Below are positions 2,470-62,633 of a stretch of 64,000 nt of DNA, piece by piece (the stretch's first letter is position 1; each line of letters begins with the position of its first letter). Both the position numbers and the translations under genes were made by a program. Source of the stretch: Cenarchaeum sp. Lineage in GTDB: Archaea; Thermoproteota; Nitrososphaeria; Nitrososphaerales; Nitrosopumilaceae. The notes beneath the pieces were generated by a model that was not told the origin of the DNA, made no database searches, and was given only the letters and a program-made list of their open reading frames with translations. The DNA is taken from positions 2,148,537-2,212,536 of the forward strand of contig CBDESU010000001.1 of the NCBI GenBank assembly GCA_965242695.1. Reading direction: 5' to 3'.

Positions 2470-2571
2470 GCGCGTGACCGCCCGATGTTTGCCGGCGCGG
2501 CGGCCACGGGTGGGCTCGGGCCACGGCGCCCACAGCAATATTTTATATAGGGCCACCCGCCCCCAAGATCC

Positions 2572-7396: not shown

Positions 7397-8977
7397 CTAC
7401 GGTCCGCTTCTCGACTCGCCGGCGCCCGCCCCGCCCCGCTCCGCCTCGTACCTCTCGAGCAGCCACCGGTGGTCGCCGGCCATGCGGTCGATCCGCTCGC
7501 TCATGCTCGCAATCTGCGCCCTGAGCTCGTCCGAGCCGTCCCTCCCCTCGATGACCGACGCCATCCTCGTGAACACGTTCAGGCGCGGCGCGGCCTTTGC
7601 GTACTCGCGCCGGAGCGACTCGGGGTACAGCGTCGCCTGCACCTCGTACGCGTCCTTTGGGGCGTGGCCGATCACGTGGTCGGCCACGTCGATCCTGCAC
7701 CCCGCGTCTATGAGCGTCGACTTTACGAGCTTGCGCAGCTGGTGCGAGTGGCGCGAGGGCGACTCGCGCTCGCCCGGCCGCCGCCTCACCAGGCCGGCCC
7801 TCACGGCCAGCTTTGCAAACGACCTGTGCACCCAGCTGTCCTTGATGGGGCTCCCCTGCTGCGTTATGTACAGCGGGCTGCCGTCGCCGCGCCGCAGCGG
7901 GCGGCAGGTGCGCCTCTCGCGGTCGTACAGCCAGTCCTGCAGGGCCGAGACCGCATCCCGCTCGATGAACCCCGTGTGCCGGTACGCCGTCTTGACCCTG
8001 GACAGCACGATCGGCACGGGGCACTTGTCCAGGCTCCAGTTGCGCGGGTCGTCGGTCCCCATGTGGGCCGAGACCTGGTCGAACGCCGTGTAGTTGAACC
8101 GGTCGGCGATCGTGGCCCTGTCCAGCCCGCGGTGGAACATGGACAAAAACACCGACCTCTCGAGCAGGTTCGGGCGGCCGGCCGTCAGTATCGTCGCAAA
8201 GTCGGCCAGCGTGAGCGAGTCGTCCATCCACTCGTCGCCTCCCCCCGCCTGCGCGGCCGGCCGGCCGCCGCGGGCCCTGCGCATGCGGAACTTTACGGAG
8301 TACGACACCTCGTGCGTCTCAAAGTACGACTTTAGGGCCGTCTCGGCGCTCCGCACGGACGCGACCGACAGCGACCGGTCGTCCCGGACCTCGCTGAGGA
8401 ACTCGCGCGCGATCTTGTTGAGGTCGCGCGAGCTCGACTCGGGCTCTAGGTACAGGTCGAGCAGGTCGCCGACGCCTCCGAGCGTGACCGCCTCGACGAC
8501 CTTGCCGTACGAGCCGTCCTCGCGGCGCCACCTCGTGATCTCCACCGTCCTGCCGGCGAGCCACCCGTGGAACTTGTACAGGCGGCTCGCGTACGACCGG
8601 CGCGTCCCCGTGAGGGTGCTGCTAGCCAGGTCGTGCTGAAAGTCGGTCCCGCTGAGCGTCTTGAGCCAGTAGGCGACGGACGGTATGCGCACGAACTCGG
8701 CGAGCGTGACGGACGGGCGGCTGTCTATCGCCTCGACGATCCCGGCCTTTTCCGCCGCCCGTATGGCCGCGAGGGCGCGGTTCATGCGGTGCGCGTACGA
8801 CGACGGCGGCACGTCCCTGTCGGCCGACCTCTTTGCCAGTATCGTCGACGAGACGACGTCGCCGCACCGCAGCCCGGCCAGGAAAGGGACGGCCCGGGGC
8901 GGCAGCACGCCCGACTCTACTGCCTCTACGATCTGCCGGTCAATGGCCCCTCCGTCGCCGTCGGGGCACCCCGTCAC
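7397..8977 (-). CDS. Tyrosine recombinase/integrase
   Basis: Catalytic set R (HRGLD), K (RVKT), HxLR (HQLRK), H (VIGH) and Y (DAYE); large N-terminal extension. Confidence 0.9.
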   Translation of the reverse strand: MTGCPDGDGGAIDRQIVEAVESGVLPPRAVPFLAGLRCGDVVSSTILAKRSADRDVPPSSYAHRMNRALAAIRAAEKAGIVEAIDSRPSVTLAEFVRIPSVAYWLKTLSGTDFQHDLASSTLTGTRRSYASRLYKFHGWLAGRTVEITRWRREDGSYGKVVEAVTLGGVGDLLDLYLEPESSSRDLNKIAREFLSEVRDDRSLSVASVRSAETALKSYFETHEVSYSVKFRMRRARGGRPAAQAGGGDEWMDDSLTLADFATILTAGRPNLLERSVFLSMFHRGLDRATIADRFNYTAFDQVSAHMGTDDPRNWSLDKCPVPIVLSRVKTAYRHTGFIERDAVSALQDWLYDRERRTCRPLRRGDGSPLYITQQGSPIKDSWVHRSFAKLAVRAGLVRRRPGERESPSRHSHQLRKLVKSTLIDAGCRIDVADHVIGHAPKDAYEVQATLYPESLRREYAKAAPRLNVFTRMASVIEGRDGSDELRAQIASMSERIDRMAGDHRWLLERYEAERGGAGAGESRSGP

Positions 8978-9016: not shown

Positions 9017-9143
9017 ATGGTATTAAATGTTCATGCATTCTGGGCGCCCCGTGCTTCTGGGCGCCCCGTGCCGGCGGCATGGTATCACCAGTTCATGGAC
9101 AGGGCTGTTTGATACCATCCAGCTATATACGCTGCATGGTATC
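9017..9143. promoter_or_regulatory. Recombinase/S-layer intergenic region with four ATGGTAT motifs, a 17-bp tandem duplication and TATA-like boxes
   Basis: ATGGTAT at 9017, 9079 and 9136 (+) and GATACCAT at 9111; TTCTGGGCGCCCCGTGC x2 (9038-9071); TTAAAT at 9023, TATATA at 9124. Confidence 0.6.
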
Positions 9144-12100
9144 CAACTCCTACGTATCCCGTATTTCCGTTACTAGTATCATACTAGCCACCATCATGGT
9201 GGCCGGCGGGGTCACGTTCGCCATACCGGGAGCCATCCCGGAGGCCGCGGCCCAGTCGAGCAACGCAAACCTGTACGTGTCTGCCGAGAACAGCGCCTTT
9301 GACAACGTCTTCACGGGCCTGAACGTCGTAGAGGTCGTAGTACGCGACCCCGACCGCACCATCAGGAGCGGCAGCGACATCGCTGCCGAGCCTCGCGTGA
9401 CGGTCGACGGCGACTGGCTGAGGATGGTCCAGGGCAACGACGGCAGCTGGTACGGGTACTTTGCTGAAAACGCAAGCATTCATGTTATAGAAAATGATCA
9501 AGATAACCCTAACGCCATAGATTATGGCGAAAGATGTGATACCGGTCCGGCGGGGCTTACCGGCTACGAGTTCGAATATGCGATGTGCGCCACTGGCGCT
9601 GATCGCGATAAAGACGGCAAGCATCCGGTCATCAGGACCCCCAAGGCGATCAACAATGCAGACAACACAGGCGATCGCGTTAACTTTGGAAGCATCGGGC
9701 TCGAAAGGGCCAACCAATGGCCCTTCATCCAGGTGTACAACTTTGACGACGAGAGTGACATTGTCGTAGAGTACGAAAAGGGCGGCGATGCCCAGAGCGT
9801 CACGCTCTACTATGACAGCGATCCTGACGAGTACGGCACCGGCCTAGAGCTGGGCCGCGACAGGTATCCCTTGGGCGGCGGAGTCATCATGACCATGACC
9901 GACCTAGCGATGAATGTCGATCCGACGGACAGCGACACTTGGACGTTTACTACGGCCGACGATGGGGCATACTACTACCTGTTTGACGACAATGGCATGT
10001 GCCAGGATAACCGTAGTGATGCAAACAAGATCAACCGCGATCTTGATGGCCTTGAAGGCGTCGACGACAACCTGTACCTGACCATCGATCCCGACAAGGA
10101 CGGGTCGACGGTTCTAAAATTCATGGTGCCCCACCCGGGTAACCAGAATGACGACTGTGGTGCAGGAACAAGCACTGCCAAGACCCTGATGATGAACTCC
10201 GACACGAACAACATGGTCACCTTCATCGAGGGCGACCCGGGCGTGTTCACGAACACCAACACCAACACCGATCTGCCCAACATAGTTGTCCCCACCAACG
10301 CGGCGAGGGGCAACACAGCGGTCATCGACTACAACGACGGCGACATATCCGTGGTGGTGGGCCATACCTTTGGGACCATAACGCTAGACGACGATGCAGT
10401 CGGTGGCGTGTGGAACTCTGGTGAGGAGATACCCGTCACGCTCACGGATGCGGATATTAACCGGGCCGCCATGAACGATGAAGACATAGACGTAAGCAAT
10501 CCCGCCTTTACGATAATCCCTAGCGTGCGGATCGGCTCGCCGATCACGCTTGCGAGCGCGGAGTCGGCCATGCTGGGCAACTCCATGCTTGCTGGCTCCA
10601 ACGGCACATTCGCTGTCGATTCGTTCAGCGACGTTGGTAGGCTGATGCCCAACATGACCGCCAACACCGTAACGTTCAAGTGGGCAGAGATGGGCGAAGA
10701 GATCGGGAGCTTCCTCGCAGATGAGGAAAATAACAGGGTCTACAACGCCGACGGCAGCTTCAGGGGCGTCACTTACCCCTCTGCCACGTTCCAGTTCCTC
10801 AACTTCGATGTTCGCTCAATCGGGAGCGTAAATAGCGCAGCCTTCCAGTGGATGAACGCAAGTGGAATGCAGAGCATTCCGATTCCTGATGTCAGCGGCG
10901 GTCAGGACCTTGTCGAAATAACCAATGTCGACGTGTCCATGATTCCTGACGATGCTGACGTTTACATCATGCTGAACTTTGGTGGCAACACCCTCGAGAG
11001 CGGCATGACATACCCTGTTGTAGTCGACCTCTTTAGCTTTGGCCAGATGGGAGACGGCGTTGCCGCCAGCGAGCGGATCAACAACGCAATCTACCGGCTA
11101 GAGCTTGAGGAGAGCGGCGACAACACCGGCGTATTCGAAGGCACGATAGAGTACACGATGCTCAACCAAATTAACGTCCGTGACCCGGGCACATACAATG
11201 GCCTGGACACAATCAGTGACGCAGTCACAATGGTGGTGCACAACGACATGACCGACGAGGACTCTATCCGTGTCAACTACCTAGACCTGGGCGCCGACGG
11301 CGTTGCGACGCAGATCGCCGACCAGGTAGAGGCACCTACAACATCGGGATCGGTCTCGTTCGATGCCGACAACTACAAGGTGGCCGACACGGTCACCGTG
11401 ACCCTTGAGGATGCAGACATGAACACAGCAGTCGAGACGATCGAGATATACACGGTCGTGGACACTGCTGACGATCCAGCCTATGACATGGTCGGCGTCG
11501 AGAACTACGGCGTCAACAGCGCGGGAGATGCGTTCGGCCGCGTCCTAGACGTCACGTTCGACGACCAGCTGTGGCTTGAGGGCTGCGGCATCAGCGGCGA
11601 CAACGGCCTCGGCTCAACCGGCTTTACGCTGATCGAGACTGGCGCCGACACGGGCGTCTTCACCGGCGACTTCCAGATTCCGCTCCAGTACTGCCACAGG
11701 CTTCCCAACAACGATGTAGAAGTCCGGTCCACCACCGGCGTTGATATGGAAGTCAACTATGTTGACTACCGCGACGCCTCCGGCGAGACCCTAGAGGTCG
11801 GCGACAGCGCCGGCATCAGGGCCAACACCGGCACGGTGAGCCTAGACAGGACCGTATACCCGGTTCCGTTCGGCGTACCGGCCGACTACGGCGGCAACCC
11901 GCCGCAGGGCGCATCGATATTCCCGATCCACGCGACCGGGATAAACAGCTGGCCGGCGCCGGGCACGTTCCTGCCCAACGGCGACCTGACGATCCACATC
12001 CGGGTCAACGATCCGGACTTTGACATCTCGGCGAGCGGCGAGGACACCATTGCGGTCAACATACCTCGCGGAGACCAGACTGCGAAGACGGATGCGAGCG

Positions 12101-14076: not shown

Positions 14077-14094
14077 ACAACACACAGATACTAG

Positions 14095-14140
14095 TTTCAC
14101 TTTTCCTTTTTTCATTTTTTTGAATCCTTCTTTGTGGGGG
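14095..14140 (+). terminator. T-rich archaeal terminator after S-layer copy 1
   Basis: Poly-T runs just after the stop codon, conserved after all four S-layer genes. Confidence 0.65.
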
Positions 14141-14489: not shown

Positions 14490-14534
14490 CCCCACGAAGA
14501 GGGATTCAAAAAAATGAAAAAAGGAAAAGTGAAA
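14490..14534 (-). terminator. T-rich terminator after S-layer copy 2
   Basis: Reverse complement of the copy 1 terminator region. Confidence 0.6.
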
Positions 14535-14552
14535 CTAGTATCTGTGTGTTGT

Positions 14553-17500
14553 CTACCTTACGTTGACCGTTACGGTGCCCGGCGGAGACAGCGCGGTCGG
14601 GTTGTCGACCGACTCCCAGACGAACACCGTTGCGGTGTACGAGCCTGGCATGTCGGGCGTCCAAGACTGCGCTGGCGAGAGGGACTGGCCCGGATTGAGC
14701 GAGCCCTCTATCCACGAGAGCGAGACGGTGACGCCGTTGGCATCCTGGATCTGGACAAGGTACGCGAACGACTGCGTCCGGTCCTGCCCGTTGATCACGT
14801 CGGCCGTTATCTGCACCTGCTGGTCCACGGACACCGAGGATAGCGTGTTCCCGAAGGAATCGACTACCCGGGCGTTCGAGACCGGCGCCCTCTCGAGCGG
14901 AGGCACGATCGTGCCGATGATTGCGGCTGCCGTTACGTCGATATCGTCGTTGGTGCTGTACGGGTTCGGGAGCGTGCCGTCGGTGTACTCGGCCGATATC
15001 GTGTCGCCCTCGGCGACGCGCAGCCTGTGGCCCGACGACTCGTCGGTAGTCGTGAAGAAGACCGTCCCCTCAAACACGCCCGTGGCCTCGTTGGTCTCGG
15101 TCACGGTGAGGTCGATGCCTCCCGAGTCCGAGTCCGAGTACACGTCGATGTCGAAGTTGTCCACGGCCTCTGGGTCCAAGTTCATGTCACGGTCAATGAC
15201 CCTGACAATCCCCGTGCCCTGCGCCGGGTAGCTCGTTTCTAGCCACTGCACTTCGCCTATGCTCCAGCGCACTAGCGCCGTCGTCACGACGGTCTCGTCC
15301 TCGGAGAACTCGAACGACACGGTAATGCCGTCGTCGTCGCCCGTCGGAAGCTTGCCGTCGGTCGGGCCGGTGCCAGATGCAGGCGTGTCGACAATGTCGT
15401 AGCCGTTGGTGCCCGTCCTAGTGTTTCCGTCCGCGTCGTGGCTGAAGCCTGTCAGGATCACCTCGCCGGCGAATATGCCGGTGTCGGTGCCCGTCTCTAC
15501 GAGGCGATACGGCTCGAGCTCGGCGCCGCGGGTCGAGACCCGTATCGGGTCGGATCCCGTCTCGCCGATCTCGTCGACAAGGTCAGAGTCGAAGTTGTGG
15601 TCTGGCGCGACGATCGTAATGTAGACCTTGTCGGTCCACGTGTAGACCTTCTGGTCCAGCTCGATCGTTGCCCCAAAGTTGGATGTGAAGACGGTCAGGT
15701 TGATGTCCTCGTCGTCGTCGCCGACGTAGTCGGCGCCAGACGGGCCCCAGTCGGTGTACTCGAGGGTGATCTCTTCGCCCCTCTCGACCCTGTCGCCGCC
15801 TAGCTCCTCGGGTATCTCGACTACAACCTGGAATATTCCAGTGCTGTCGCCGGTCTCCCTCAGGTCGGACGGTTCGGGATCGAAGTTGACGCTGCCTCTC
15901 GGCTGGCCCACGGTGCCCATTGAAAGGGCAGCCGCGTCAGAGTCCCACTCGATCAGGTCTAGGCTATACGTCTCTGCCTCGTCGCTCTCCAGGTCGAGAT
16001 CCGGCTCGATCAGCGTCAGGATCATGTCCTGGCCGATGATGTAGACGGACTTGTCGGACTGGAGGACGCCGTTGCGCAGGTCGAACGTGGCCGAGTCGGT
16101 CACGGTGTTCGGGTTGCCCGACGCATCTGTCGGATCGGTGTACTCTACGGTCAGAATGTCGCCCTGCAGGATGCAGTGGTTTGTCTGCCCGTCGGAGAAC
16201 CTGGTAAGGGCGCTCTCGGTCTTCATGTTCGTCTCGGATATCCTCTCGCCCTCAAGCGGCTCGAAGGATCCCGTCTCGGGACACTGCGAGCTGGCCGGGC
16301 CATCAGTGTACCTGATCGGCAGGTCGAGCTCGAATATGCCGGCGTCGGGGGCGATCTCGGTGATCGGCCCTAGCTCTCTGGTCTGGGACACGTCGCGTAT
16401 CCGCTCCTGGATGGTTCCGTCAGCCATTCTCACGATGGTAGATGCCGTCCCTGCAGAGGCCACATCCGAGCCGGACGTGATCACGCCGCCCATATTGTCT
16501 TCGTTGCCTATCTTTGCTGGACCTCCTGCGGTAGCGATAACCACTGTATCAGCACCCCTCGAGATTGACACCTTGAGGGGGCCATGTGTCTTGTCGTCAC
16601 CGCGATCGATCGCTTCGCTTATCACGTCTTCGCCGCTAGCCGATATGTCGTAGTCGGGATCGTTGATCCGGACATGCACTGTCAGATCGCCCGTCGGCAG
16701 GTATGTGTTGACGGTGCCTACGTTGCCACCGTGGCCGGTGGAGTGTATCGGGAATATGGTGTTGGGAGTCATGCGAGTAAAGCTGTTGTCGTTGTTCCTC
16801 GTGGTAAAGTCATTGGCAGTACCGAACGGAACGGGATAGACAGTCCTGTCTAGACTGACAGTACCGGTGTTGGCCCTGATGCCGGCGCTGTCGCCGACTT
16901 CTATAGTCTCGCCGGAGGCGTCACGGTAGTCAACATAGTTGACCTCCATGTCGACGCCGGTGGTAGACCTAGACTCGTCACCGATGCTGGTCCTGTGGCA
17001 GTAGTTTGACGGAATCTGGAAGTCGCCGGTAAAGACGCCGGTATCGGCGCCCGTCTCGATCAGCGTAAAGCCGGTCTCGCCGAGGCCGTTGTCTACGTCA
17101 TCGTCTATGCTTGCTTCGCAACCCTTAAGCCATAGCTGGTCGTCGAACGTAATGTCTAGGACGCGTCCCAGTGCAGCGCCGCTGGCGACACCGCCAAGGC
17201 GCCCGTACCCGGGCTCGCCAATCATGTCAAATGCAGGATCGCGTATGTCGGGAAGTTCGTTGCCCTGCGCGTCCACAGCCTTGTAGGTCGTGTCGACCGC
17301 AGTGTAGATGTCCACCGTCTCGACGGCAGTGTTCAGGTCGGCATCTTCGAGTGTGACTGTGACCGTGTCGGCCACCTTGTAGTTGTCAGCATCGAATGAT
17401 ACCGACCCCGATACCGTCGGAGCCTCCACTTGGTCGGCGATCTGCGTCGCAACGCCGTCGGCTCCCAAGTCGCGGTAGTTGACGCGGACAGAGTCCTCGT

Positions 17501-19667
17501 CAGTCATGTCATTGTGGACAATCAAGACGATTGCATCGCTTATTGGGTCAATGTCCTCATAGGTAGATTCCTGTCGGACGTTGATCTGGTTGAGCATGAT
17601 GTATTCCATGCTTCCCTCGAAGACGCCCGTGTTGTCGCCGCTCTCCTCCAGCTCCAGCCGGTAGATGGCGTTGTTGATCCTGTCGCCAGGTGCAACGCCG
17701 TCGCCCATCTGCCCAAAGCTGAAGAGGTCGACCGCTACAGGGTAAGTCTTGTCGGCTTCAAGAGTAGTAATCCCGAAGTCCAGCACTATGTCGACTTGCG
17801 CATTGTCTGGAATGTTGTTGATCTCGGTCATGTTGGCAGTTATGCCGACAAGGCCCTGATCCATGCCATTGACAGCACCTATCGCTGTCTCCATGTCGTC
17901 ACCCCATTGGAATGACGCGCCAGTAAGTTCACCGATCGAGCGCACGTCAAAGTTGAGGAATTGGAACGTGGCTGGCTTGGGTGCAACGTGCGTTGCTGTC
18001 CCTTGTGCCGGATCATCCTCCAGGAACGACTTGAGCGTCTCGCCCGTTGTCACTCCCTTGAACGTCAGGTCCACGTTGATGGTGTCCATTGCTGGCATCA
18101 GCCTGACAATGTCGCTAAAAGCGTCCTTCGTAAAGTTGCCCGCCATAGCCATATCCGTGGAAGCTAGCGTGAGATTTTCATTGCTTCCGACCATTACCAT
18201 CGAGTCAACCCCGCCAAGCGTAATGGGTGAACCAATGCGCACGCTAGGAATAATCGTGATCTTGTCGTTATACAGCTCTAGATCCTCGTCGTTCATGGCC
18301 ATGCGGTTAACATCTGCATCTGTAAGCGTGACGGGTATCTCCTCGCCAGAGTTCCACACTCCGCCGACTGCGTCGTCGTCAATCGTTATGGTTGCAGTGG
18401 AGTAACCCACCACCACGGACATAGTGCCGTCGTTGTGGTCAATGACGGCGGTAGTGCCCCTATTCGCACTCATTGGCACGTAGAGGTTGGGCGTATCGCT
18501 GTCACTATCAGTGTTTGTGAACACGCCAGAGTCACCTTCGATAAAAGTGACCATCCGGATGTTTTCATTGTTGTTGTTCATGTTGCTATCGCGGTTCACA
18601 GCATTGGCAACGATCAGGTCTGCACCGCGGCTATTGATTGCACTGTCATCTGCACATGTGCGCGTGCCATCTCTCTTGACAGGATCATCCTGGCTACCCT
18701 CATGAGGCGCCCTGAACTCAACTGCCATGCTGCCATCCTTATCGGTGTCAATGGTAAGGTAGAGGTTGTCTTCAACACCCTCGAGTCCCTCACCGTCAAC
18801 GCCATCCCGGGGAAGCATAGGCGGATTCCTGTCTTGGCACACACCATCGTCATCGAAGAGATAGTAGTATGCAGCTTGGTAGTTGTCATGCTCAGAATTG
18901 TCTGTAGTCATGAACGTCCACGTGTCGCTGTCCGTCGGGTCCACGTCCATGGCGAAGTCCGTCATGGTCATGATGACGCCGCCGCCCAGGGGATACCTGT
19001 CGCGGCCCAGCTCCAAGCCGACGCCGTAGTCAGTGGGATCGCTGTCGTAGTAGAGGGTGACACTCTGCGAGTCGCCTCCCTTTTCGTACTCTACGACAAT
19101 GTCGCTCTCGTCGTCAAAGTCGTACACCTGGATGAATGGCCACTGGTTTGCATCAGCGCTACTAAGCCTGATGCTACCCAAGTTGGCGCGGTCCGCCGCA
19201 TCGTTGATCGCCTTTGGCGTCCTGATAACATCGTTGGCGCTACACCTTAGCGAGACGGACTCGGTATTTCCGAGGCTCTCCATCGTGCATTCAGTGCCGT
19301 AGTTTATTGCAGGACCGACATTATCAATGTTGACCTCTGCAAAGTACCCGTACCAGTTGCCGTCGTTGCCGTGGACCATCCTCAGAAGGTCTCCGTCTAC
19401 CGTCACGCGAGGCTCGGCGGCTATGTCGCTGCCGCTCCGTATGGTGCGGTCGGGGTCGCGAACGACCACCTCTACGACGTTGAGGCCGCTGATGGCGTTG
19501 TTGGTGTCGGCGTTCTCTGCCGACACGTACAGGTTTGCGTTGCTCGACTGGGCCGCTGCCTCCGGGATGGCTCCCGGTATGGCGAACGTGACCCCGCCGG
19601 CCACCATGATGGTGGCTAGTATGATACTAGTAACAGCATGCCGGTTCCTTGCTGTTTTTGATACCAT
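14553..19667 (-). CDS. S-layer glycoprotein, copy 2
   Basis: Paralog of copy 1 with near-identical C-terminus and divergent N-terminal/central blocks; no TATA box upstream. Confidence 0.9.
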   Translation of the reverse strand: MVSKTARNRHAVTSIILATIMVAGGVTFAIPGAIPEAAAQSSNANLYVSAENADTNNAISGLNVVEVVVRDPDRTIRSGSDIAAEPRVTVDGDLLRMVHGNDGNWYGYFAEVNIDNVGPAINYGTECTMESLGNTESVSLRCSANDVIRTPKAINDAADRANLGSIRLSSADANQWPFIQVYDFDDESDIVVEYEKGGDSQSVTLYYDSDPTDYGVGLELGRDRYPLGGGVIMTMTDFAMDVDPTDSDTWTFMTTDNSEHDNYQAAYYYLFDDDGVCQDRNPPMLPRDGVDGEGLEGVEDNLYLTIDTDKDGSMAVEFRAPHEGSQDDPVKRDGTRTCADDSAINSRGADLIVANAVNRDSNMNNNNENIRMVTFIEGDSGVFTNTDSDSDTPNLYVPMSANRGTTAVIDHNDGTMSVVVGYSTATITIDDDAVGGVWNSGEEIPVTLTDADVNRMAMNDEDLELYNDKITIIPSVRIGSPITLGGVDSMVMVGSNENLTLASTDMAMAGNFTKDAFSDIVRLMPAMDTINVDLTFKGVTTGETLKSFLEDDPAQGTATHVAPKPATFQFLNFDVRSIGELTGASFQWGDDMETAIGAVNGMDQGLVGITANMTEINNIPDNAQVDIVLDFGITTLEADKTYPVAVDLFSFGQMGDGVAPGDRINNAIYRLELEESGDNTGVFEGSMEYIMLNQINVRQESTYEDIDPISDAIVLIVHNDMTDEDSVRVNYRDLGADGVATQIADQVEAPTVSGSVSFDADNYKVADTVTVTLEDADLNTAVETVDIYTAVDTTYKAVDAQGNELPDIRDPAFDMIGEPGYGRLGGVASGAALGRVLDITFDDQLWLKGCEASIDDDVDNGLGETGFTLIETGADTGVFTGDFQIPSNYCHRTSIGDESRSTTGVDMEVNYVDYRDASGETIEVGDSAGIRANTGTVSLDRTVYPVPFGTANDFTTRNNDNSFTRMTPNTIFPIHSTGHGGNVGTVNTYLPTGDLTVHVRINDPDYDISASGEDVISEAIDRGDDKTHGPLKVSISRGADTVVIATAGGPAKIGNEDNMGGVITSGSDVASAGTASTIVRMADGTIQERIRDVSQTRELGPITEIAPDAGIFELDLPIRYTDGPASSQCPETGSFEPLEGERISETNMKTESALTRFSDGQTNHCILQGDILTVEYTDPTDASGNPNTVTDSATFDLRNGVLQSDKSVYIIGQDMILTLIEPDLDLESDEAETYSLDLIEWDSDAAALSMGTVGQPRGSVNFDPEPSDLRETGDSTGIFQVVVEIPEELGGDRVERGEEITLEYTDWGPSGADYVGDDDEDINLTVFTSNFGATIELDQKVYTWTDKVYITIVAPDHNFDSDLVDEIGETGSDPIRVSTRGAELEPYRLVETGTDTGIFAGEVILTGFSHDADGNTRTGTNGYDIVDTPASGTGPTDGKLPTGDDDGITVSFEFSEDETVVTTALVRWSIGEVQWLETSYPAQGTGIVRVIDRDMNLDPEAVDNFDIDVYSDSDSGGIDLTVTETNEATGVFEGTVFFTTTDESSGHRLRVAEGDTISAEYTDGTLPNPYSTNDDIDVTAAAIIGTIVPPLERAPVSNARVVDSFGNTLSSVSVDQQVQITADVINGQDRTQSFAYLVQIQDANGVTVSLSWIEGSLNPGQSLSPAQSWTPDMPGSYTATVFVWESVDNPTALSPPGTVTVNVR
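19599..19634 (-). other. Putative recombination core, copy 2
   Basis: Exact reverse complement of 9169-9204. Confidence 0.55.
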
Positions 19668-48491: not shown

Positions 48492-51400
48492 ATGGTATCA
48501 AAAACAGCAAGGAACGGGCATGCCGTTACTAGTATCATACTAGCCACCATCATGGTGGCCGGCGGGGTCACGTTCGCCATACCGGGAGCGATCCCGGAGG
48601 CCGCGGCCCAAACGCCGAACGACAACCTGTACGTGTCTGCCGAGAACAGCGCCTTTGACAACGTCTTCAGCGGCCTCAACGTGGTGGAGGTAGTCGTTCG
48701 CGACTCCGACATCAACTTCCGCGGCGACAGGGACGACGATCCGTCGGCCGAGCCGCGCGTCGAGGTTGACGGCGACCAGCTGAGGATGGTCCAGGGCAAC
48801 GACGGCAACTGGTACGGGTACTTTGCAGCTGCAAACGTCATGGATGCCGACACCAACGACGGCAACGGCTTGGACTATGGTACGTACTGCTCCACTAGCG
48901 ATCTGAACAACGATAGGATCACGGGCTCAGACGGAGCCTATGTCGAGAGTGTTATACGTGGCGACTTTGCGTCAACGGCGGGTGTTTTCCTAAAGGGTAC
49001 ACTCGAGTATGACATCCCTGGCACAGACTGTGACGGAACCGCAGATAGGAATCTGCAAAACGTCATCAGGACTACAAAGATCGTTAGTAACACAGTGCCC
49101 GATGGCGTGAACATTGGAAGTGTGACTCTAGGCGCCGAAGCAATGTGGCCGTTCATCCAAGTATACAGCTTTGACGACGAATCCGACATTGACGTAGAGT
49201 ACCAGAAGGGAGGCGACAAACAAATCGTCACCCTTTACTACGACAGCGATCCTGACGAGTACGGCACCGGCTTGGAGCTGGGCCGCGACAGGTATCCGCA
49301 GGGCGGCGGCATCATCATGACCATGACCGACCTTGCGATGAACGTCGATCCGACAGACGAGGACACTTGGACGTTTGATACCACGGGCAACCAAGCTGCC
49401 TACTACCGCATCTTTAACGATGATGGTGAGAGACAGTATCCAGGAATGCCTAGAACTGATGATAACCTTAATGACGCGGTTGACCGTGAACTCCAGGGAA
49501 TTGACGATAACCTATATCTGACAATCGATCGTAATGCAGAGAATGCGGAAAATCCCGCTGTCGAGATAAAAAGACAGAAGGATGGCAACCAGAACGACGG
49601 CCTCACGATAGCTGAAATAAACAGTGCCGGTGGCGTAGCTGCCATGGAACACATCGTCACCTTCATTGAGACGGGATCAAACACCGGTGTATTCACCAAC
49701 ACAGACAGTGACAGTGACACGCCCAACATTCTGGTTAGCGAAAATGCCGAGAGGGGAACCTCTGCGGTCGTTGACCACAACGACAGTAGTCAGTCCATAG
49801 TGGTGGGCAGCTCCTTTGCAACCATAACGCTAGACGACGATGCAGTCGGCGGCGTGTGGAATTCTGGCGAAGAGATACCCGTCACGCTCACGGATGCGGA
49901 TATTAACCGCAAGGCCATGGCAGATGAGGACATTGACGTGAGTGATTCCACCTTCACAATAATCCCAAGCGTGCGAATCGGCTCGCCGATTACGCTAGCA
50001 GGGACCATAAACGGTGACAAGGGAATGGTGACGATAGGAACCAGCACGATGCCGAATAAGATGATGCTCAACTTTAGCGACAATGACAATGACAATGACG
50101 ATCAGTTTACCGTAGATGCGTTCAGCGACGTAGCTCGCTTGAACCCCCCTGCGATGACCACTGACGACATAGTGACATTCAAGGCAGTGACGACGGGCAA
50201 GGAGCTCCTGTCGTTCCTCAAGAACGACACGGCACAGCCCGCGGACATGGTGAACATAAAGCCCAAGCCAGCAACGTTTCAGTTCCTAAACTTTGACGTT
50301 GGCTCGATCGGAAAGGTAAGCAGCGTAATGTTCCAGTGGAAGAACACAACCGACAGTGAGGTACAGAACCAAGAAATCAAAAACCAAAAAGGCGAGTCAA
50401 TCACGGGTAGCGATGGTCTTGTGGACATAACTAATGTGACTCTAACCAATATTGCAGATACGGATACTGCGCAAGTCGACATAGTGTTGGACTTTGCAAG
50501 TACCGATTTCAAGAAAGGAGATGCGTATCCCGTTGTAGTCGACCTCTTTAGCTTTGGCCAAAAAGGCGACGGTGTTGCCCCTGGTGACAGGATCAACAAC
50601 GCCATCTATAGGCTTGAGCTGGAGGAGAGCGGCGACAACACCGGCGTGTTTGAGGGCACGATGGAGTACATCATGCTCAACCAGATCAACGTCCGGCAAG
50701 CTTCCACCTACGAGGACATCGACCCCATAAGCGACGCAGTCGTTATGATTGTGCACAACGACATGACCGACGAGGACTCTGTCCGCGTCAACTACCTAGA
50801 CCTGGGCGCCGACGGCGTTGCGACGCAGATCGCCGACCAGGTAGAGGCACCTACGACATCGGGCTCGGTCTCGTTCGACGCCGACAACTACAAGGTGGCC
50901 GACACGGTCACTGTGACCCTAGAAGACGCCGACATGAACACTGCTGTCGAGACGATCGAGATCTACACGGTCGTGACTCAGACTTATGCTTCGAAGAATG
51001 CCGATGGAAAGGACATTACTGTCAACGATCCCGCCTTCGACATGGTAGGTGTGGGGGAATATGGCAGGGCCGGCGGCATCGCCAGCGGCGACGCCCTTGG
51101 CCGCGTCCTAGACATTACATTCGACGACCAGCTGTGGCTCAAGGGCTGCGGCATCAGCGGCGACAACGGCCTCGCCTCGACCGGCTTTACACTGATCGAG
51201 ACGGGCGCTGACACAGGCGTCTTTACCGGCGACTTCCAGATTCCGTTGCAGTACTGCCACAGGGTTGGCAACACGATGGAAGCCAGGTCTACCACCGGCG
51301 TCGACATGGAGGTCAACTATGTCGACTATCGGGATGCATCCGGCGAGACCATTGAGGTCGGCGACAGCGCCGGCGTCAGGGCCAACACTGGCTCCGTAAA

Positions 51401-53687
51401 CCTAGACAGGACAGTTTACCCTGTTCCGTTTGGGACTCCTGCCAACTTTGCAGGACAGAACCTGCAGGGCGCGTCGATTTTCCCGATCCATGCGACGGGA
51501 ATCCTCAACAACCAGCTTGTACCCGGCACTTACATTCCCAACGGAGACCTTACGATCCACGTGCGCATCAACGATCCGGACTTTGATGTCTCGGCCAGCG
51601 GCGAGGACTCGATTGCGGTAAACGTGCCACGCGGCATGCAGACTGCATCGAGCCCGAACCTTGAGCACGGCCCACTCAAAGTCACGATATCGAGGGGCGC
51701 ATCGTCGGTGATCGTGGCGACCGCCGGCGGCGAATCGTCCAACGACGGCCGCATTACCACCTTGGGAGCCACGACTTCCGTCCAGAACGGCCAGCTTGTC
51801 ACTACACTGTTTGATGACGTCAGGGTCTACGATCCAAACCTGAAATATCCTAACAACACAGAAATTCCGCGCACTCTGCAGCCTATAACTAGGGAACTTG
51901 GGCCGATCACCGAGATCGCGCCCGACGCGGGCATATTCGAGCTCGACCTGACCCTGAGGTACACCGATGGGCCGGCTGGGCCGCAATGCCCGAACACTGT
52001 CAACTTTGACGGACTCGGCGGCAGAGCCGACGGCAACACGGCGGACGTAAGGTTCACCGATACTGTGTCCCGCCACTGCATACAGCAGGGCGACATCATC
52101 ACCGTAGAGTACACCGACCCGACCGACTCGTCGGGCAATCCGAACACCGTGACCGACTCGGCCACGTTCGACCTGCGCAACGGCGTCCTCCAGTCCGACA
52201 AGTCCGTCTACATCATCGGCCAGGACATGATCCTGACGCTGATCGAGCCGGACCTCGACCTGGAGAGCGACGAGGCCGAGACGTACGATCTCGACCTGAT
52301 CGAGTGGGACTCTGACGCGGCCGGCCTTACCATGGGCAACATCGGCGGCGGCAACTTCGATCCCGAGCCTTCCGACCTGAGGGAGACCGGCGACAGCACT
52401 GGAATATTCCAGGTTGTAGTCGAGATACCCGAGGCGTTCGGCAACAACCGCGTAGAGCGGGGCGAGGAGATCGAACTGGAGTACATCGACTACGGGCCGT
52501 CCGGAGCCGACTACGTCGGCGACGACACCGAGGACATCAACCTGACCGTCTTCACCTCCAACTTTGGGGCAACGATCGAGCTGGACCAGAAGGTCTACAC
52601 GTGGACCGACAAGGTCTACATTACGATCGTCGCGCCCGACCACAACTTCGACTCGGACCTTGTCGACGAGATCGGCGAGACGCCTAACGACCCGATCAGG
52701 GTCTCTACGCGTAGCGCCGAGCTCGAACGCTACCGCCTCGTCGAGACTGGAACCGACACCGGCATATTCGCCGGCGAGGTGATCCTGACCGGCTTTGCCC
52801 ACGACGCGGACGGCGACACGACCACGGGTGACCGTGGACTTGATGTTGTCGACACGGAGGCATCCGGCAGCGGTCCGACCGACGGCAAGCTTCCGACGGG
52901 CGACGACGACGGCATTACCGTGTCGTTCGAGTTCTCCGAGGACGAGACCGTCGTGCAGACGGCGCTTGTGCGCTGGAGCATCGGCGAGGTGCAGTGGCTA
53001 GAGACCAGCTACCCGGCCCAGGGCACGGGCATCGTCAGGGTCATCGACCCCGACATGAACCTAGACCCCGAGGCCGTAGACAACTTCGGCATCGACGTGT
53101 ACTCGGACTCGGACTCGGGAGGCATCGACCTCACCGTGACCGAGACCAACGAGGCCACGGGCGTGTTCGAGGGGACGGTCTTCTTCACCACGACGGACGA
53201 GTCGTCGGGCCACAGGCTGCGCGTCGCCGAGGGCGACACGATCACGGCCGAGTACACCGACGGCACGCTCCCGAACCCGTACAGCACCAACGACGACATT
53301 GACGTGACGGCAGCCGCAATCATCGGCACGATCGTGCCTCCGCTCGAGAGGGCGCCGGTCTCGAACGCCCGGGTAGTCGATTCCTTCGGGAACACGCTAT
53401 CCTCGGTGTCCGTGGACCAGCAGGTGCAGATAACGGCCGACGTGATCAACGGGCAGGACCGGACGCAGTCGTTCGCGTACCTTGTCCAGATACAGGATGC
53501 CAACGGCGTCACCGTCTCGCTCTCGTGGATAGAGGGCTCGCTCAATCCGGGCCAGTCCCTCTCGCCAGCGCAGTCTTGGACGCCCGACATGCCAGGCTCG
53601 TACACCGCAACGGTGTTCGTCTGGGAGTCGGTCGACAACCCGACCGCGCTGTCTCCGCCGGGCACCGTAACGGTCAACGTAAGGTAG
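48492..53687 (+). CDS. S-layer glycoprotein, copy 3
   Basis: Paralog of copy 1; no TATA box upstream. Confidence 0.9.
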   Translation: MVSKTARNGHAVTSIILATIMVAGGVTFAIPGAIPEAAAQTPNDNLYVSAENSAFDNVFSGLNVVEVVVRDSDINFRGDRDDDPSAEPRVEVDGDQLRMVQGNDGNWYGYFAAANVMDADTNDGNGLDYGTYCSTSDLNNDRITGSDGAYVESVIRGDFASTAGVFLKGTLEYDIPGTDCDGTADRNLQNVIRTTKIVSNTVPDGVNIGSVTLGAEAMWPFIQVYSFDDESDIDVEYQKGGDKQIVTLYYDSDPDEYGTGLELGRDRYPQGGGIIMTMTDLAMNVDPTDEDTWTFDTTGNQAAYYRIFNDDGERQYPGMPRTDDNLNDAVDRELQGIDDNLYLTIDRNAENAENPAVEIKRQKDGNQNDGLTIAEINSAGGVAAMEHIVTFIETGSNTGVFTNTDSDSDTPNILVSENAERGTSAVVDHNDSSQSIVVGSSFATITLDDDAVGGVWNSGEEIPVTLTDADINRKAMADEDIDVSDSTFTIIPSVRIGSPITLAGTINGDKGMVTIGTSTMPNKMMLNFSDNDNDNDDQFTVDAFSDVARLNPPAMTTDDIVTFKAVTTGKELLSFLKNDTAQPADMVNIKPKPATFQFLNFDVGSIGKVSSVMFQWKNTTDSEVQNQEIKNQKGESITGSDGLVDITNVTLTNIADTDTAQVDIVLDFASTDFKKGDAYPVVVDLFSFGQKGDGVAPGDRINNAIYRLELEESGDNTGVFEGTMEYIMLNQINVRQASTYEDIDPISDAVVMIVHNDMTDEDSVRVNYLDLGADGVATQIADQVEAPTTSGSVSFDADNYKVADTVTVTLEDADMNTAVETIEIYTVVTQTYASKNADGKDITVNDPAFDMVGVGEYGRAGGIASGDALGRVLDITFDDQLWLKGCGISGDNGLASTGFTLIETGADTGVFTGDFQIPLQYCHRVGNTMEARSTTGVDMEVNYVDYRDASGETIEVGDSAGVRANTGSVNLDRTVYPVPFGTPANFAGQNLQGASIFPIHATGILNNQLVPGTYIPNGDLTIHVRINDPDFDVSASGEDSIAVNVPRGMQTASSPNLEHGPLKVTISRGASSVIVATAGGESSNDGRITTLGATTSVQNGQLVTTLFDDVRVYDPNLKYPNNTEIPRTLQPITRELGPITEIAPDAGIFELDLTLRYTDGPAGPQCPNTVNFDGLGGRADGNTADVRFTDTVSRHCIQQGDIITVEYTDPTDSSGNPNTVTDSATFDLRNGVLQSDKSVYIIGQDMILTLIEPDLDLESDEAETYDLDLIEWDSDAAGLTMGNIGGGNFDPEPSDLRETGDSTGIFQVVVEIPEAFGNNRVERGEEIELEYIDYGPSGADYVGDDTEDINLTVFTSNFGATIELDQKVYTWTDKVYITIVAPDHNFDSDLVDEIGETPNDPIRVSTRSAELERYRLVETGTDTGIFAGEVILTGFAHDADGDTTTGDRGLDVVDTEASGSGPTDGKLPTGDDDGITVSFEFSEDETVVQTALVRWSIGEVQWLETSYPAQGTGIVRVIDPDMNLDPEAVDNFGIDVYSDSDSGGIDLTVTETNEATGVFEGTVFFTTTDESSGHRLRVAEGDTITAEYTDGTLPNPYSTNDDIDVTAAAIIGTIVPPLERAPVSNARVVDSFGNTLSSVSVDQQVQITADVINGQDRTQSFAYLVQIQDANGVTVSLSWIEGSLNPGQSLSPAQSWTPDMPGSYTATVFVWESVDNPTALSPPGTVTVNVR
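48525..48560 (+). other. Putative recombination core, copy 3
   Basis: Identical to 9169-9204. Confidence 0.55.
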
Positions 53688-53704
53688 ACGACAAAAGATA
53701 CTAG

Positions 53705-53750
53705 TTTCACTTTCCTTTTTTCATTTTTTTAAATCCTTCTTCGTGGGGGA
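53705..53750 (+). terminator. T-rich terminator after S-layer copy 3
   Basis: Poly-T runs after the stop codon. Confidence 0.6.
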
Positions 53751-54317
53751 TGCTGTGCCCCCACATGCACGTCATGTTTGATATGGGCCAACTGTGAGAT
53801 ACATGATGTTGCCAAGTCGTTGACCTGCCCAGTCTCGGGAAGTGCCCCGCTGCCTGTTGACGAGTCCCGACCGGCCACCGCACCGCTGTCGCTGCCCCCT
53901 GACGAGGGCAGCGGGCGGAATACCGTCGAGTGTCGATCTATATGGCATCCGGACATGTCGTGCCTTGTCAAGCGGCGCACGGCCGCGGATGATCCGTTGG
54001 TTATCCGTCCCCCGCTTAGCAGGCGCAGTGTAGGTTGGTTCCGATCGACAATGGCGGTGCACGACCACCGCATGCCTCCGAGAGTCCCGTTGTCCCTGCA
54101 CCCGGTAAGAGACCGACATGAACGCAACCGTTCCGCCGCTATAGGGGGCAGGCCGCCTGTTCGGACGCCTGTCGGGACGTTTGTCGCCGAGTGCACCCCG
54201 CCTGTCCCCGACCCCTAGGCGCCGTGCGTTCCCGTGCTGGCGCGCGGGCTTGCACGGCTTGTGATTTTTCGTCCTGCCGGGCGCCAGGGCCCTGATGGCG
54301 CCCGTGCCATGTGCATG

Positions 54318-55103
54318 TCATCTGCTACCAGGTACCGCTGCGCGGGCGGTGGCCGCCCATGCGGCCGCCGCATTGCCTGCAGCTGTGGCGAATTCAGTCC
54401 ATGCATCCGCCGCCGCGGACGTTTCCTTCGCACCGGCATCCGCCGCCGCCGCTGCGTCCTTCATCGCCGCTATTGCCTGCTTATCTGCCTCGGCCGCATC
54501 GGCGGCCACCGGAACCAGGTCTATCCGCACCCCCGCACTCGCCGCCGCCGCCGCATGCATGGCCGCGGCGGCGGCGGCGGCCGCAACCGACGCTGCGCGG
54601 GATGCCGCCGCATCAGCCGCCTGCTCATCCGCCGCTGCGCGGGATGCCGCTGCCGCTGCGCGGGATGCCGCTGCCGCTGCCGACGCATCCGCCTCTTCCT
54701 TTGCCGCCGCCGCCTGCGCGTCAGCGGCCCGCACCGCGGCCTGCTCTTCCTTCGCCGCCGTCCCGTGCGCGCTTGCCCGCGTTATCGCCGCCGCCGCCGC
54801 GTGGCGCGCATTGGATCGCAGTTCATACTCCGCCGCTTGTCGCTCGTACTCCGCCGCCGCCTTGTACGCCACCACTGCCAGTTCGTGCGCCATTGCCGCG
54901 CGGCCATCGGCTAGACGCGCCGCGCGGCCATCGGCTAGACGCGCCGCACCGGCCATGTCGTCAGCAACCGCCCGGTGCGCGACGGCCCGTTCGTATGCCG
55001 CCGTTGCCCTATGCGCCGCTACTGCCGCCCGGTGCGCGACGGCGGCCGCCGCCGCCCATGCCGCCGCTGCGCCACCCGCCAACGCATCTGCCGCTAATGC
55101 CAT
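54318..55103 (-). CDS. Ala-rich low-complexity helical protein
   Basis: TTAAAA about 25 bp upstream of ATG; internal 21-bp and 24-bp repeats. Confidence 0.45.
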   Translation of the reverse strand: MALAADALAGGAAAAWAAAAAVAHRAAVAAHRATAAYERAVAHRAVADDMAGAARLADGRAARLADGRAAMAHELAVVAYKAAAEYERQAAEYELRSNARHAAAAAITRASAHGTAAKEEQAAVRAADAQAAAAKEEADASAAAAASRAAAAASRAAADEQAADAAASRAASVAAAAAAAAMHAAAAASAGVRIDLVPVAADAAEADKQAIAAMKDAAAAADAGAKETSAAADAWTEFATAAGNAAAAWAATARAAVPGSR

Positions 55104-55216
55104 CAAAGTGCCGCATGGGTTGTATGTTTTAACCTTGACGCTGTGCCCGCGTGCTCGCATGCGGTGCAGTTTGAGCACCATGTTTGGACTGCAGGTTGGC
55201 GGCACCTAGATGATTG

Positions 55217-55618
55217 TCACTGTGCCGCTTGCATGGGCATGCGGCATTCTCTTGTCGCCGCACGTGCCTCGTCTGCCGCCGCCCGCGCCGCCCGCGCGGC
55301 GGCGCGGGCGGCCTCTATTATGCCGGCGTCGGCGGCGGGTGGTGACCCGCGAGACGGCGCGGCAACATAAAGGGCGGCCTGTTCGGCCTCGTCGGCGGCC
55401 TGTTCGGCCTCGTCGGCGGCACTCTTGGAGTTCCGCCACGCCAGGTGCGCGACGGCCTGTTCGGTGCGCTCAATGCTGGCGTCGATGGTCTTGCCGCTGC
55501 CGAGTGTTATCATCATCTCAACGGCGCGCGTTGCGGCGGCGGCTGATGCGGCAGCGACCCCATATGCGGTCGCACGGTCCGTAGCATCTTTGGCCGCGGC
55601 GCGCCGCGCGTCGTCCAT
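55217..55618 (-). CDS. Ala-rich helical protein
   Basis: TTAAGTA about 25 bp upstream; AADEAEQ x2 repeat. Confidence 0.45.
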   Translation of the reverse strand: MDDARRAAAKDATDRATAYGVAAASAAAATRAVEMMITLGSGKTIDASIERTEQAVAHLAWRNSKSAADEAEQAADEAEQAALYVAAPSRGSPPAADAGIIEAARAAARAARAAADEARAATRECRMPMQAAQ

Positions 55619-55945
55619 GCCGCGCGCACGCGCCGACGCTACTTAACTGCTTCGGCCCGCGCGGCCGCATGTGCGGAGGGCTTTGGGCTTACGCACTTGT
55701 GCCCGGCGGGCGCCCCGGCGCCCGCGGCGGCCATCCGCATGCTCCTTCAACGGGCCGCCGCCCGCTACCTGTCCTCCGCTCCGCCTCTGGGGTGCCGCAC
55801 CCGTGCCGGCAGGTGCGTCCCGAGGGTGCCGAACGGGCGCCAACGCTTAGCGGCTCCAGACAGCATTAAAAACACCCGTAGGCCGCCTGCTCGCGATGGC
55901 GGGCCAGCACAGCTGGGGCGAGGCTGGTCCCGGGGGCGATCAGAC

Positions 55946-56353
55946 ATGGGCGACATGGGCGCGATCACCACCAGCCTTCACCTCGCCTCAGAGCTCCTCC
56001 GGCCGTACATGGCGACCCTAAAAGATGCCAGGTCGCGCGGCGGCTTTACAGAGCGGCAGGACGAAGTCCAGAGCCTCTTGGACGTCCTCGTTCCGATGAG
56101 CCTCCACCTCCGGGACATGTCCTGCTTTAACCTTGGCATTGACGGCGAGAGGATGTCAGAATTCCTGCGCCGCCGTCACCGCGAGGGCTGGCCTGCAGCT
56201 AGGGACGACATCATCTCGCTCGCCTTGAGGCTCGAAAAAAGCGGCGGTTCCAAGGCGGCCCTCTCGGGGAAGGATATGTCCGTCCTTGACGGCGTGGCCG
56301 TGTCCCTCGACAGTGTGTGCTCGTATCTGTACAGGAAGACGCGCCGGAGATGA
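55946..56353 (+). CDS. Hypothetical protein
   Basis: Normal amino-acid composition; ATGA overlap with a short downstream ORF (56350-56559). Confidence 0.5.
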   Translation: MGDMGAITTSLHLASELLRPYMATLKDARSRGGFTERQDEVQSLLDVLVPMSLHLRDMSCFNLGIDGERMSEFLRRRHREGWPAARDDIISLALRLEKSGGSKAALSGKDMSVLDGVAVSLDSVCSYLYRKTRRR

Positions 56354-56854
56354 ACGTGGAATATCTGAGGCGCACGATCCGCGATCAGATCGACAGGGCG
56401 CAGTCGCTAGCGGATGGGATCCCGCGCAGGTCCGGGCATGCCGTCTTGGGGCGCTTGGCCGCCTCGTGCAGGGCCGCACTGGAAGGGGGGGGGCGCAGCC
56501 GTTCAACGCCGGAACACGCCCACTGGCGCATGAATGCGGGCGCTGCGGATGAAGGATGAGGAGATGCGATGGTACGGGTGTGCAGTGATCCCCTGCTAGA
56601 GTACGACCACGCCTTTCCGCCTCTGACGGCCGAGAGGCTGCCGAGTCTGTAATTCCGGTTCGGCCGATCGGGCCGAGAGCTATTCCAACGAGAAGGACGC
56701 AAGACAGGGACTGCCACATGCCGTCTCCCTTTTGAACAATGCCGGCGGGGTTTTCCAGGGCGAGGGTGACGCGGACTTCAGTCCTGAACAGAAACTCGTC
56801 GCCAAGCCGCCCCCTGCACCACATCCATGTGCATCACAGGCGGGGGCACAGCAT

Positions 56855-56900
56855 CCCCCACAAAGAAGGATTCAAAAAAATGAAAAAAGGAAAAGTGAAA
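56855..56900 (-). terminator. T-rich terminator after S-layer copy 4
   Basis: A-rich on the + strand; same block as after the other copies. Confidence 0.6.
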
Positions 56901-56920
56901 CTAGTATCTGTGTGTGTTGT

Positions 56921-61855: not shown

Positions 61856-62066
61856 ATCCCGCCGCGCCAGCGGCCGGCCCCGTTGTGCATCCGGCGCGGT
61901 CCGGCAGCGCGCGTCGGGCAGCCAGCTGCGCTTGCCGTCGGCAGCCGTAGGCGGCGCTCACCGGCACAGATGTCGGCATTGGGGCGGGCGCCACGCAGGC
62001 TCCATGACGCCTCAGGGTGCGCTTCCGCCGCATCCGCGTCGAACGCTACGGCGGCTGCGCATGCGC

Positions 62067-62633
62067 TTACGCTGCGGCGGTGTCCGTGTCAGCCAACACG
62101 TGAAATTCATTGGTGTCGTCGTCGTAGGCAAGCCGGATTACGCGATAGTTGGGCGGGTAGTTGCCGTTCGCGTCGGGATCTATCTGGGGGCCGAGCTTTT
62201 CAAGGTCCTTCTCCACAGTCTTTACAAGCCCTGCCGCAAACGCCTTGTCCCAGAGCGCCAGCTTTTTATCGATCATCTCCTCGCCGTCATGATCGTCCAC
62301 GTCCGGCCTGACGGCGGACGACTCTATAATGTCGGCGATCTCGGGGAGCGCGGCCAGGCCGTCAAGGGCCGCGCGCCTCCTCGACGGGTCGTCTCGCGCC
62401 TCCTCGAACCTGTCGATCATGTCGCACAGCACTAATCCCGCAAAACGGAGTGCATCGTAAAACCAAAAGTTGTTGTCATTGTCCTGTTCGAACCACTCGC
62501 TCTTCAGCGTCACCGTGGTCGAATGCAGGTGGCGCAGGTCGGCAAGCATAGCCTGCCCGTCGCCGCCAAGCCTCCCTGACGATGCCCGCGCTGCGCGTTC
62601 TGCTATGTCCGCAAGCGCCAGTGCCTGGCTCAT
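62067..62633 (-). CDS. 'SQALALAD' protein (duplicate of 47714-48280)
   Basis: Identical translation. Confidence 0.7.
   Translation of the reverse strand: MSQALALADIAERAARASSGRLGGDGQAMLADLRHLHSTTVTLKSEWFEQDNDNNFWFYDALRFAGLVLCDMIDRFEEARDDPSRRRAALDGLAALPEIADIIESSAVRPDVDDHDGEEMIDKKLALWDKAFAAGLVKTVEKDLEKLGPQIDPDANGNYPPNYRVIRLAYDDDTNEFHVLADTDTAAA

Follow-up and report, generated by a model that had tools for sequence, protein, structure and literature searches.

The final 64 kb of contig C1 of a Cenarchaeum sp. genome (G000; 3.89 Mb in two contigs, 68% GC), hereafter the window, carry four long surface-layer (S-layer) genes, designated cassettes g1 to g4, and, divergent from g1, a gene for a tyrosine recombinase. 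Within its signal-peptide codons, each cassette contains the same 36-nt double palindrome, which a preliminary description of this DNA had proposed as the crossover site of the recombinase. Our best reading of the locus, to which we assign a probability of roughly 0.6, is that it constitutes an inversion switch with one expression site and several silent cassettes. The 36-mer would mark the 5′ edge of a short invariant recombination zone common to the S-layer cassette family; reciprocal exchange between two copies that lie in opposite orientation would invert the intervening DNA and put a different cassette body behind a single promoter and signal-peptide start. The neighbouring tyrosine recombinase is a candidate catalyst, and the switching may be programmed. 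Taken by itself, inversion switching at the zone is likely to be real.

Evidence for two orientations of the g3-g4 segment

The evidence for inversion lies in the way the two contigs overlap. Contig C2 begins inside g3: C2:1-12526 is identical (100.000%) to window positions 49296-61821, a span that takes in g4 completely, the spacer and the 3′ portion of g3, and the contigs part at the G/C just before TTACTAG, the heptamer that opens the invariant zone. Past this edge, C2 runs into a promoter-bearing flank (class C, see below). C1 ends after another 2.2 kb that match the g3 flank (46348-48522) as its reverse complement, save for a single G in a G10/G11 run, and in the 2.5-kb inverted repeat all differences besides that homopolymer G lie after 48610, within the genes. 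The assembly joins g4 to the class C flank and also to the inverted g3 flank, which is the pattern expected of a sample holding both orientations of the 13.3-kb segment, and we infer that both were present. A fold-back read is an unlikely source of this pattern, because it would repeat its own sequence. In state 1, the class B flank (see below) would lead into g3, with g4 lying against class C; in state 2, the class B flank would lead into g4, with g3 against class C. The exchange would fall between TTACTAG and the first difference between g3 and g4, an interval of which the palindromes occupy the first 34 nt.

In the genome of a sister species (G004), the locus is contiguous and has four cassettes in mirror layout: a class C copy (+), a second copy (−), a 20-kb gap, a third (+), a fourth (−) and the recombinase gene. 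Beyond class C, the C2 flank shows synteny with that of the promoter-bearing copy of G004. Mapping of the crossover with a further genome, G406, gave no resolution, its second contig (45.9 kb) being a locus variant of 93-97% identity that differs inside the cassette body.

Cassettes and the putative expression site

The cassettes comprise 1645-1731 codons. Their proteins have no match in Pfam, but they match PDB entry 8c8k_A, annotated as 'Cell surface protein' (E=0, 1522 bits, residues 490-1645), which we take to be the S-layer protein of an ammonia-oxidising archaeon. Including that on C2, five upstream flanks are present and fall into three classes: A before g1, B before g2, g3 and g4, and C on contig C2. 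In the class C flank, TTATATA precedes ATGAAAAACGAAATACACAGGAAA (encoding MKNEIHRK) by about 33 nt; this canonical archaeal promoter is found at no other flank, and together with the start it resembles those of the S-layer genes of G002, a relative in the same genus with a single copy, and of the expressed-type copies of two other genomes, G001 and G362. Flanks of classes A and B have a high GC content, lack a TATA box at the expected distance and open with the motif ATGGTATC 34 nt before TTACTAG; the TATATA located 7 nt before the ATG of g1 is not conserved in G004. From this layout, the class C site would be the only one transcribed. The sequencing runs listed with this stretch number 14, sponge metagenomes among them, and none is recorded as RNA.

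Cassette sites alternate in orientation (+ − + −) in the window and likewise in G004. With sites in this order, inversion between class C and site 3 or site 1 would bring g3 or g1, respectively, to the promoter, and g2 would need two steps. The bodies of the cassettes form mosaics that do not pair cleanly as one-to-one orthologues between G000 and G004: their variable part compares at 0.54-0.81 between the two species. Shuffling of bodies between these genomes is suggested at most; the C-terminal 40% alone has clear partners (g2-sD, 0.94; g4-sC, 0.92), at non-matching positions. At the 3′ ends of the cassettes, 1.8 kb are conserved at 92-96% identity. The G004 cassette beside the recombinase gene has a 1-nt gap about 122 nt after TTACTAG and its frame breaks after residue 52 (L035, around 10640-10650; G004:C2, around 1130640-1130652); it is either a broken silent cassette or an assembly error.

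An invariant zone at the start of the cassettes

The double palindrome consists of CTAGTAT-C-ATACTAG (palindrome 1, 9173-9187), with perfect arms around a 1-nt centre, and the equally perfect GCCACCAT-C-ATGGTGGC (palindrome 2, 9187-9203), which abuts it and shares the G at 9187; the full 36-mer reads GTTACTAGTATCATACTAGCCACCATCATGGTGGCC. Both palindromes lie where the preliminary description had placed them. A 38-mer around them occurs four times in the window, at 9167(+), 19636(−), 48523(+) and 61824(−), with 0, 1, 0 and 0 mismatches, respectively (0.00 copies expected), bearing out the earlier remark that the stretch is unchanged in all four genes. The genome-wide search for the 36-mer that had been suggested returned these four copies plus a fifth, C2:12492-12527. 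Every copy corresponds to codons 12-23 of an S-layer gene and encodes the signal peptide's hydrophobic core, (V/L)TSIILATIMVAGGVTFAIPGA. Homology of g1 to the other cassettes starts at 9167-9170, so that the stretch does begin where copy 1 diverges, as had been noted.

Across the genome, 1171 odd palindromes have arms of 7 nt or longer, and there are eight abutting pairs, five of which are the cassette copies and three unrelated GC-rich sites; the double palindrome is rare in the genome, though not unique. An exact 35-mer and a degenerate back-translation each gave no match in a metagenome contig collection, and in a genome contig collection a longer degenerate pattern gave none and a shorter one only the G002 record; from both collections, records close to the source genome were possibly excluded.

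Alignment of the eight cassettes of G000 and G004 reveals that the invariant zone is longer than the 36-mer. Starting at TTACTAG, 64 nt are identical in all eight, and the first 76 nt contain no fixed difference between the species, synonymous sites of the zone being unchanged as well. From +76 onwards, species-specific substitutions are common to all four cassettes of a genome; immediately 5′ of the zone, the sequence is unalignable between flank classes. Judging by this alignment, selection at the level of DNA or RNA acts on the zone, over a stretch longer than the 36-mer.

Codon constraint and ancestry of the palindromes

As a null model, we used 200,000 synonymous draws of the peptide TSIILATIMVA with the codon usage of these genes. 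Palindrome 2 arose in 10.9% of the draws, palindrome 1 in 0.42% and both in 0.036%. The preliminary description had pointed to AT-rich codons that stand out in this GC-rich DNA, and several codons at the site are indeed rare in these genes (ACT 0.12, AGT 0.06, CTA 0.13, GTT 0.11). Their supposed tie to recombination did not hold, however: the AT-rich codons are ancestral and not specific to recombinase-bearing genomes. ACT AGT is found at this spot in most relatives examined, and ACT AGT with ATA in G002 (67% GC), which reads ACT AGT ATA ATA CTG GCA ACG ATA ATG ATC GCG.

A relative with a single S-layer gene, no recombinase and the same palindrome had been named as the observation that would speak against a crossover site. 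Queried with the recombinase of G000, the genome of G002 yielded no homologue, and both palindromes are degenerate there: palindrome 1 is present at 6/7 positions, with its hairpin kept through a G-U pair, and palindrome 2 at 5/8. Near-versions of palindrome 2 recur with the peptide (A/T/S)-I-M-V-A, as exemplified by GGCGATCATGGTCGCC in the genome G015. In this sample of relatives, what is specific to G000 and G004 is only the perfection of the palindromes. By this comparison, the codons for TSIIL and ATIMVA largely account for their palindromic look; the palindromes may have been co-opted and perfected as a putative binding site.

Tyrosine recombinase and the accessory element

The recombinase matches the Phage_integrase domain (PF00589) by a narrow margin (28.8 bits versus a cutoff of 27.1; E 1.3e-6; residues 326-439). 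The catalytic residues R283, K329, H412, R415, H438 and Y444, with roles presumably as assigned by motif order, are intact, and each is conserved in 94-100% (31-33 of 33) of the aligned homologues. Assignment to the XerA or XerC equivalogs was rejected, the NCBIfam scores (24.3 bits versus a cutoff of 220 and 24.1 versus 335, respectively) identifying the protein as not Xer. The recombinase of G004 is 80% identical and occupies the same divergent position beside a cassette. Of 401 genomes of the family, 55 contain homologues (30-44% identity), often more than one; G015 yielded none. A search for signs of a mobile element around the recombinase gene (tRNA, att-type sites) detected no tRNA in the window, and the left flank is syntenic with G004.

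The crossover claim of the preliminary description has fared well in part. The alternative flanks part exactly at the 5′ edge of the stretch, and a recombinase with all six catalytic residues adjoins; the designation of the palindromes as the core itself receives no support, given that the exchange is confined to 85 nt only, a 1-nt centre is not the core geometry of a tyrosine recombinase and palindrome 2 is mostly dictated by the peptide. We regard it as doubtful that the 36-mer is the recombinase core; were it so, the geometry GTTACTAG / TATCATA / CTAGCCAC would be more plausible than the palindromes with 1-nt centres, the arms in this reading being complementary at 6 of 8 positions. Among the cassette sites compared, those of G001 and G362 contain no comparable core. 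Catalysis of the exchange by the neighbouring recombinase is somewhat more likely than not.

The genome contains 35 copies of the motif ATGGTATC (about 34 expected), and all six copies in the window lie at cassette starts or in the intergenic region between the recombinase gene and g1, which also contains ATGGTATT at 9017. Apart from the copies in Table 1, the motif is located at 19660-19667(−) and 61848-61855(−), and each of the three G004 cassettes that lack a promoter also has it. In the intergenic alignment of G000 and G004, the motif copies ATGGTATW, ATGGTATCA, inverted GATACCAT and ATGGTATC form conserved islands amid diverged spacers. One G004 cassette has ATGGTATC out of frame, at a distance of 35 nt from TTACTAG instead of 34, which argues that it is a DNA element and not a start codon. 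We consider it a putative accessory or operator site. Just 5′ of g1, a 17-nt inverted repeat (88% complementary, 9107-9147), GTTTGATACCATCCAGC / GCTGCATGGTATCCAAC, surrounds TATATAC; G004 keeps only its ATGGTATC cores.

Comparable loci in other lineages

Among 27 other recombinase loci, considered with 1.5-kb flanks, an S-layer 5′ end adjoins the recombinase gene in one, that of G362. There, the cassette beside the recombinase lacks a start codon, and 31 kb away is an expressed-type copy in inverted orientation; G406 shows the same pairing of a start-less cassette by the recombinase with an expressed-type copy. In G001, start-less cassettes are situated 4.4 kb from a recombinase homologue, with the expressed-type copy elsewhere, and ACGATAATG occurs twice as a direct repeat. 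The homology boundaries in G001 and G362/G406 fall between T or C and ATACTAGC, at CTACAGAAAA..., or between T and CTTACGATAATG. In G406, which belongs to another genus, S-layer cassettes are found near contig starts (C2:31454-48869 and the 45.9-kb contig C1), and the 45.9-kb variant carries a different body behind the same promoter flank.

Alternative explanations

Several observations weigh against the proposed switch. The case for inversion comes from the assembly: for window positions 44001-64000, the Logan contigs of runs X1, X3, X5 and X6 are short (≤3.3 kb) and cannot link flank to body over the 85-nt shared zone, and their joints between opposite strands fall inside homologous gene bodies. 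The exchange is placed no more closely than 48526-48610. The peptide A-T-I-M-V-A fixes six of the eight pairs of palindrome 2, near-copies of which occur in relatives without a recombinase homologue, such as G015. G001 and G362/G406 are devoid of the double palindrome, and their boundaries lie from a few to 12 nt elsewhere. Most members of the recombinase family seen are not near S-layer genes (among the 150 of 675 S-layer matches listed), and a single clade of S-layer-linked recombinases was not supported, three changes being needed on the tree and the best grouping having an SH-aLRT of 92. Finally, gene conversion homogenises the 5′ region inside each genome, as we deduce from the species-specific substitutions common to all four cassettes; homologous recombination could therefore yield the same inversions.

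The last point leads to an explanation that we consider unlikely, namely, that cassettes switch by homologous recombination or gene conversion over the conserved 5′ region, in the manner of sap of Campylobacter fetus, with incidental palindromes and the recombinase an uninvolved resident integrase. Concerted evolution of the 5′ 300 nt within each species speaks for it, as do the mosaic bodies without clear one-to-one orthologues in G000 and G004, the scarcity of S-layer linkage in the recombinase family (among the matches listed) and the occurrence of the same layout in other lineages with no common palindrome. However, perfect identity extends over just 64-85 nt and the 3′ ends of the cassettes would offer a better substrate, and conversion within a genome does not account for the invariance of the zone between species. 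Nor does this explanation sit easily with a recombinase adjoining cassettes in at least two separate lineages, or with conservation of ATGGTATC at every promoter-less cassette and beside the recombinase gene.

It is more improbable still that no programmed switching takes place at all and that the genes are ordinary S-layer paralogues with a conserved signal peptide. On this view, codon constraint or a messenger RNA hairpin would underlie the palindromes, and a misassembly, a genuine recent duplication or the presence of two strains in the sample would explain the contig overlap and tail. Palindrome 2 does emerge in 11% of synonymous draws; hairpin 1 persists in G002, a near-palindrome exists in G015 and the 36-mer as RNA folds at −13 kcal/mol (z −2.8); three unrelated abutting pairs occur elsewhere in the genome; and support for the junction is at the level of the assembly, the short Logan contigs giving no read-level proof. 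Yet a fold-back read or random chimera would not be expected to give 12.5 kb of overlap at 100% with its end precisely at the zone, together with a tail matching the inverted flank of the other copy, and G004 has four cassettes, not five, in the layout that the overlap model predicts. Start-less cassettes adjoining the recombinase in G362 and the invariance of synonymous sites between species likewise argue against this explanation.

Relation to known inversion systems

By cargo, the closest systems are slpA/slpB of Lactobacillus acidophilus and sap of Campylobacter fetus. The sap locus contains several S-layer cassettes with a conserved 5′ region and one promoter, and inversions select the expressed cassette; the process is RecA-dependent, relies on about 600 bp of homology and is not known to involve a dedicated recombinase, unlike the locus described here, where the identical stretch is 64-85 nt and a recombinase gene is adjacent. 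In shufflons (R64 Rci/sfx), a single tyrosine recombinase acts on multiple inverted sites, each with a conserved and a variable arm, and interwoven inversions re-assort the coding segments. Shufflons swap C-terminal segments of a pilus tip protein, whereas here the promoter and signal-peptide start would be swapped before whole genes. In L. acidophilus, the active and silent genes are oppositely oriented, and the silent one comes to lie behind the active promoter when the chromosomal segment inverts; chromosomes in the flipped state are a minority, at 0.3% (PMC3666127). That bacterial system has two genes and spans about 6 kb; the present one has four cassettes over about 53 kb, interwoven sites and an adjoining recombinase gene.

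By mechanism, the closest counterparts would be vsa of Mycoplasma pulmonis and vpma (Xer1) of M. agalactiae, in which a tyrosine recombinase gene at the locus is likewise combined with an expression site, silent cassettes and interwoven inversions. The vsa expression site comprises the promoter and amino-terminal coding DNA, the silent genes are promoter-less but carry recombination sites, and site-specific inversions join the 5′ end of the expression site to a formerly silent gene (PMC4534519; PMC5634654). The present locus differs in belonging to an archaeon, in having 5-kb S-layer cassettes instead of small tandem-repeat lipoproteins and a 526-aa relative of thaumarchaeal integrases instead of Xer, and in being known from sequence alone.

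We give an even chance to the fuller proposal that, in sponge-symbiotic Cenarchaeum, a domesticated integrase-type tyrosine recombinase brings four S-layer genes in turn to one expression site by programmed, interwoven inversions, with simpler two-cassette versions in other Nitrosopumilaceae, and that the site is embedded in signal-peptide codons and flanked by ATGGTATC as an accessory element. In the literature searched, supplements being outside its scope, we found no such system described for Archaea, and a survey preprint characterises archaeal invertons as minimally investigated; if the proposal is true, this would be the first described surface switch of the antigenic-variation type in Archaea. 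The S-layer is the entire cell surface of ammonia-oxidising archaea, and a means of altering it heritably and reversibly within a sponge would be relevant to the question of how symbionts escape viruses and phagocytosis. On a practical note, such a switch would break long-read assemblies at the locus, and the G000 assembly is split exactly here.

Features of the locus and its neighbourhood

Table 1. Coordinates of the features discussed, in window positions
Feature	Position	Strand
Tyrosine recombinase, 526 aa, divergent from g1	7397..8977	−
Three ATGGTATC motifs (9079+, 9111−, 9136+) between the recombinase gene and g1	9079..9143	
S-layer cassette g1, 1646 aa	9136..14076	+
Reported 36-mer in g1, palindromes 1 and 2	9169..9204	+
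64-nt stretch invariant in 8/8 cassettes of G000 and G004, encoding the signal-peptide core ..TSIILATIMVAGGVTFAIPGA	9170..9233	+
S-layer cassette g2	14553..19667	−
Site copy in g2, one mismatch, upstream of TTACTAG	19599..19636	−
S-layer cassette g3	48492..53687	+
ATGGTATC motif 34 nt before TTACTAG in g3	48492..48499	+
Site copy in g3	48523..48560	+
85-nt interval bounding the g3/g4 exchange, from TTACTAG to the first g3/g4 difference at 48611	48526..48610	+
13.3-kb segment with the g3 and g4 bodies tail to tail, present in the assembly in both orientations	48526..61821	
S-layer cassette g4; C2 has the same body behind the promoter-bearing flank	56921..61855	−
Site copy in g4; contigs C1 and C2 part at 61821/61822	61787..61824	−
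End of C1, inverted copy of 46348-48522, read as putative flipped-state junction	61822..64000	−

The surroundings of the cassettes are rich in repeats. In the 29-kb spacer between the cassette pairs (25108-42884), units of 0.3-0.7 kb form about 10 repeats with 71-89% identity and contain small open reading frames (ORFs) without Pfam matches. Upstream of g2, g3 and g4 (20289-21293, 43241-48429 and 61918-64000), a unit of about 1 kb is repeated at 82-88% identity, in tandem before g3, its ORFs also lacking Pfam matches. Near the start of the window (956-2946 and 3505-4201), a unit of about 500 nt is present in three tandem copies (83-89%) and a 102-nt periodic repeat lies within the gene for a TPR protein. 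On C2 of G000 (12700-31400; L041/L042), about 19 kb separate the class C promoter from the flank syntenic with G004 and include four units of about 1 kb resembling window positions 22279-23295, which carry a DUF5678 gene and an aspartyl-protease-like gene. Defence-type genes are found around and between the cassettes (5903-7321, 23426-24688 and 37840-39957), encoding a GmrSD_N endonuclease domain, an N6_N4 DNA methylase and an AAA_15/AAA_21 (AbiEii-like) ATPase.

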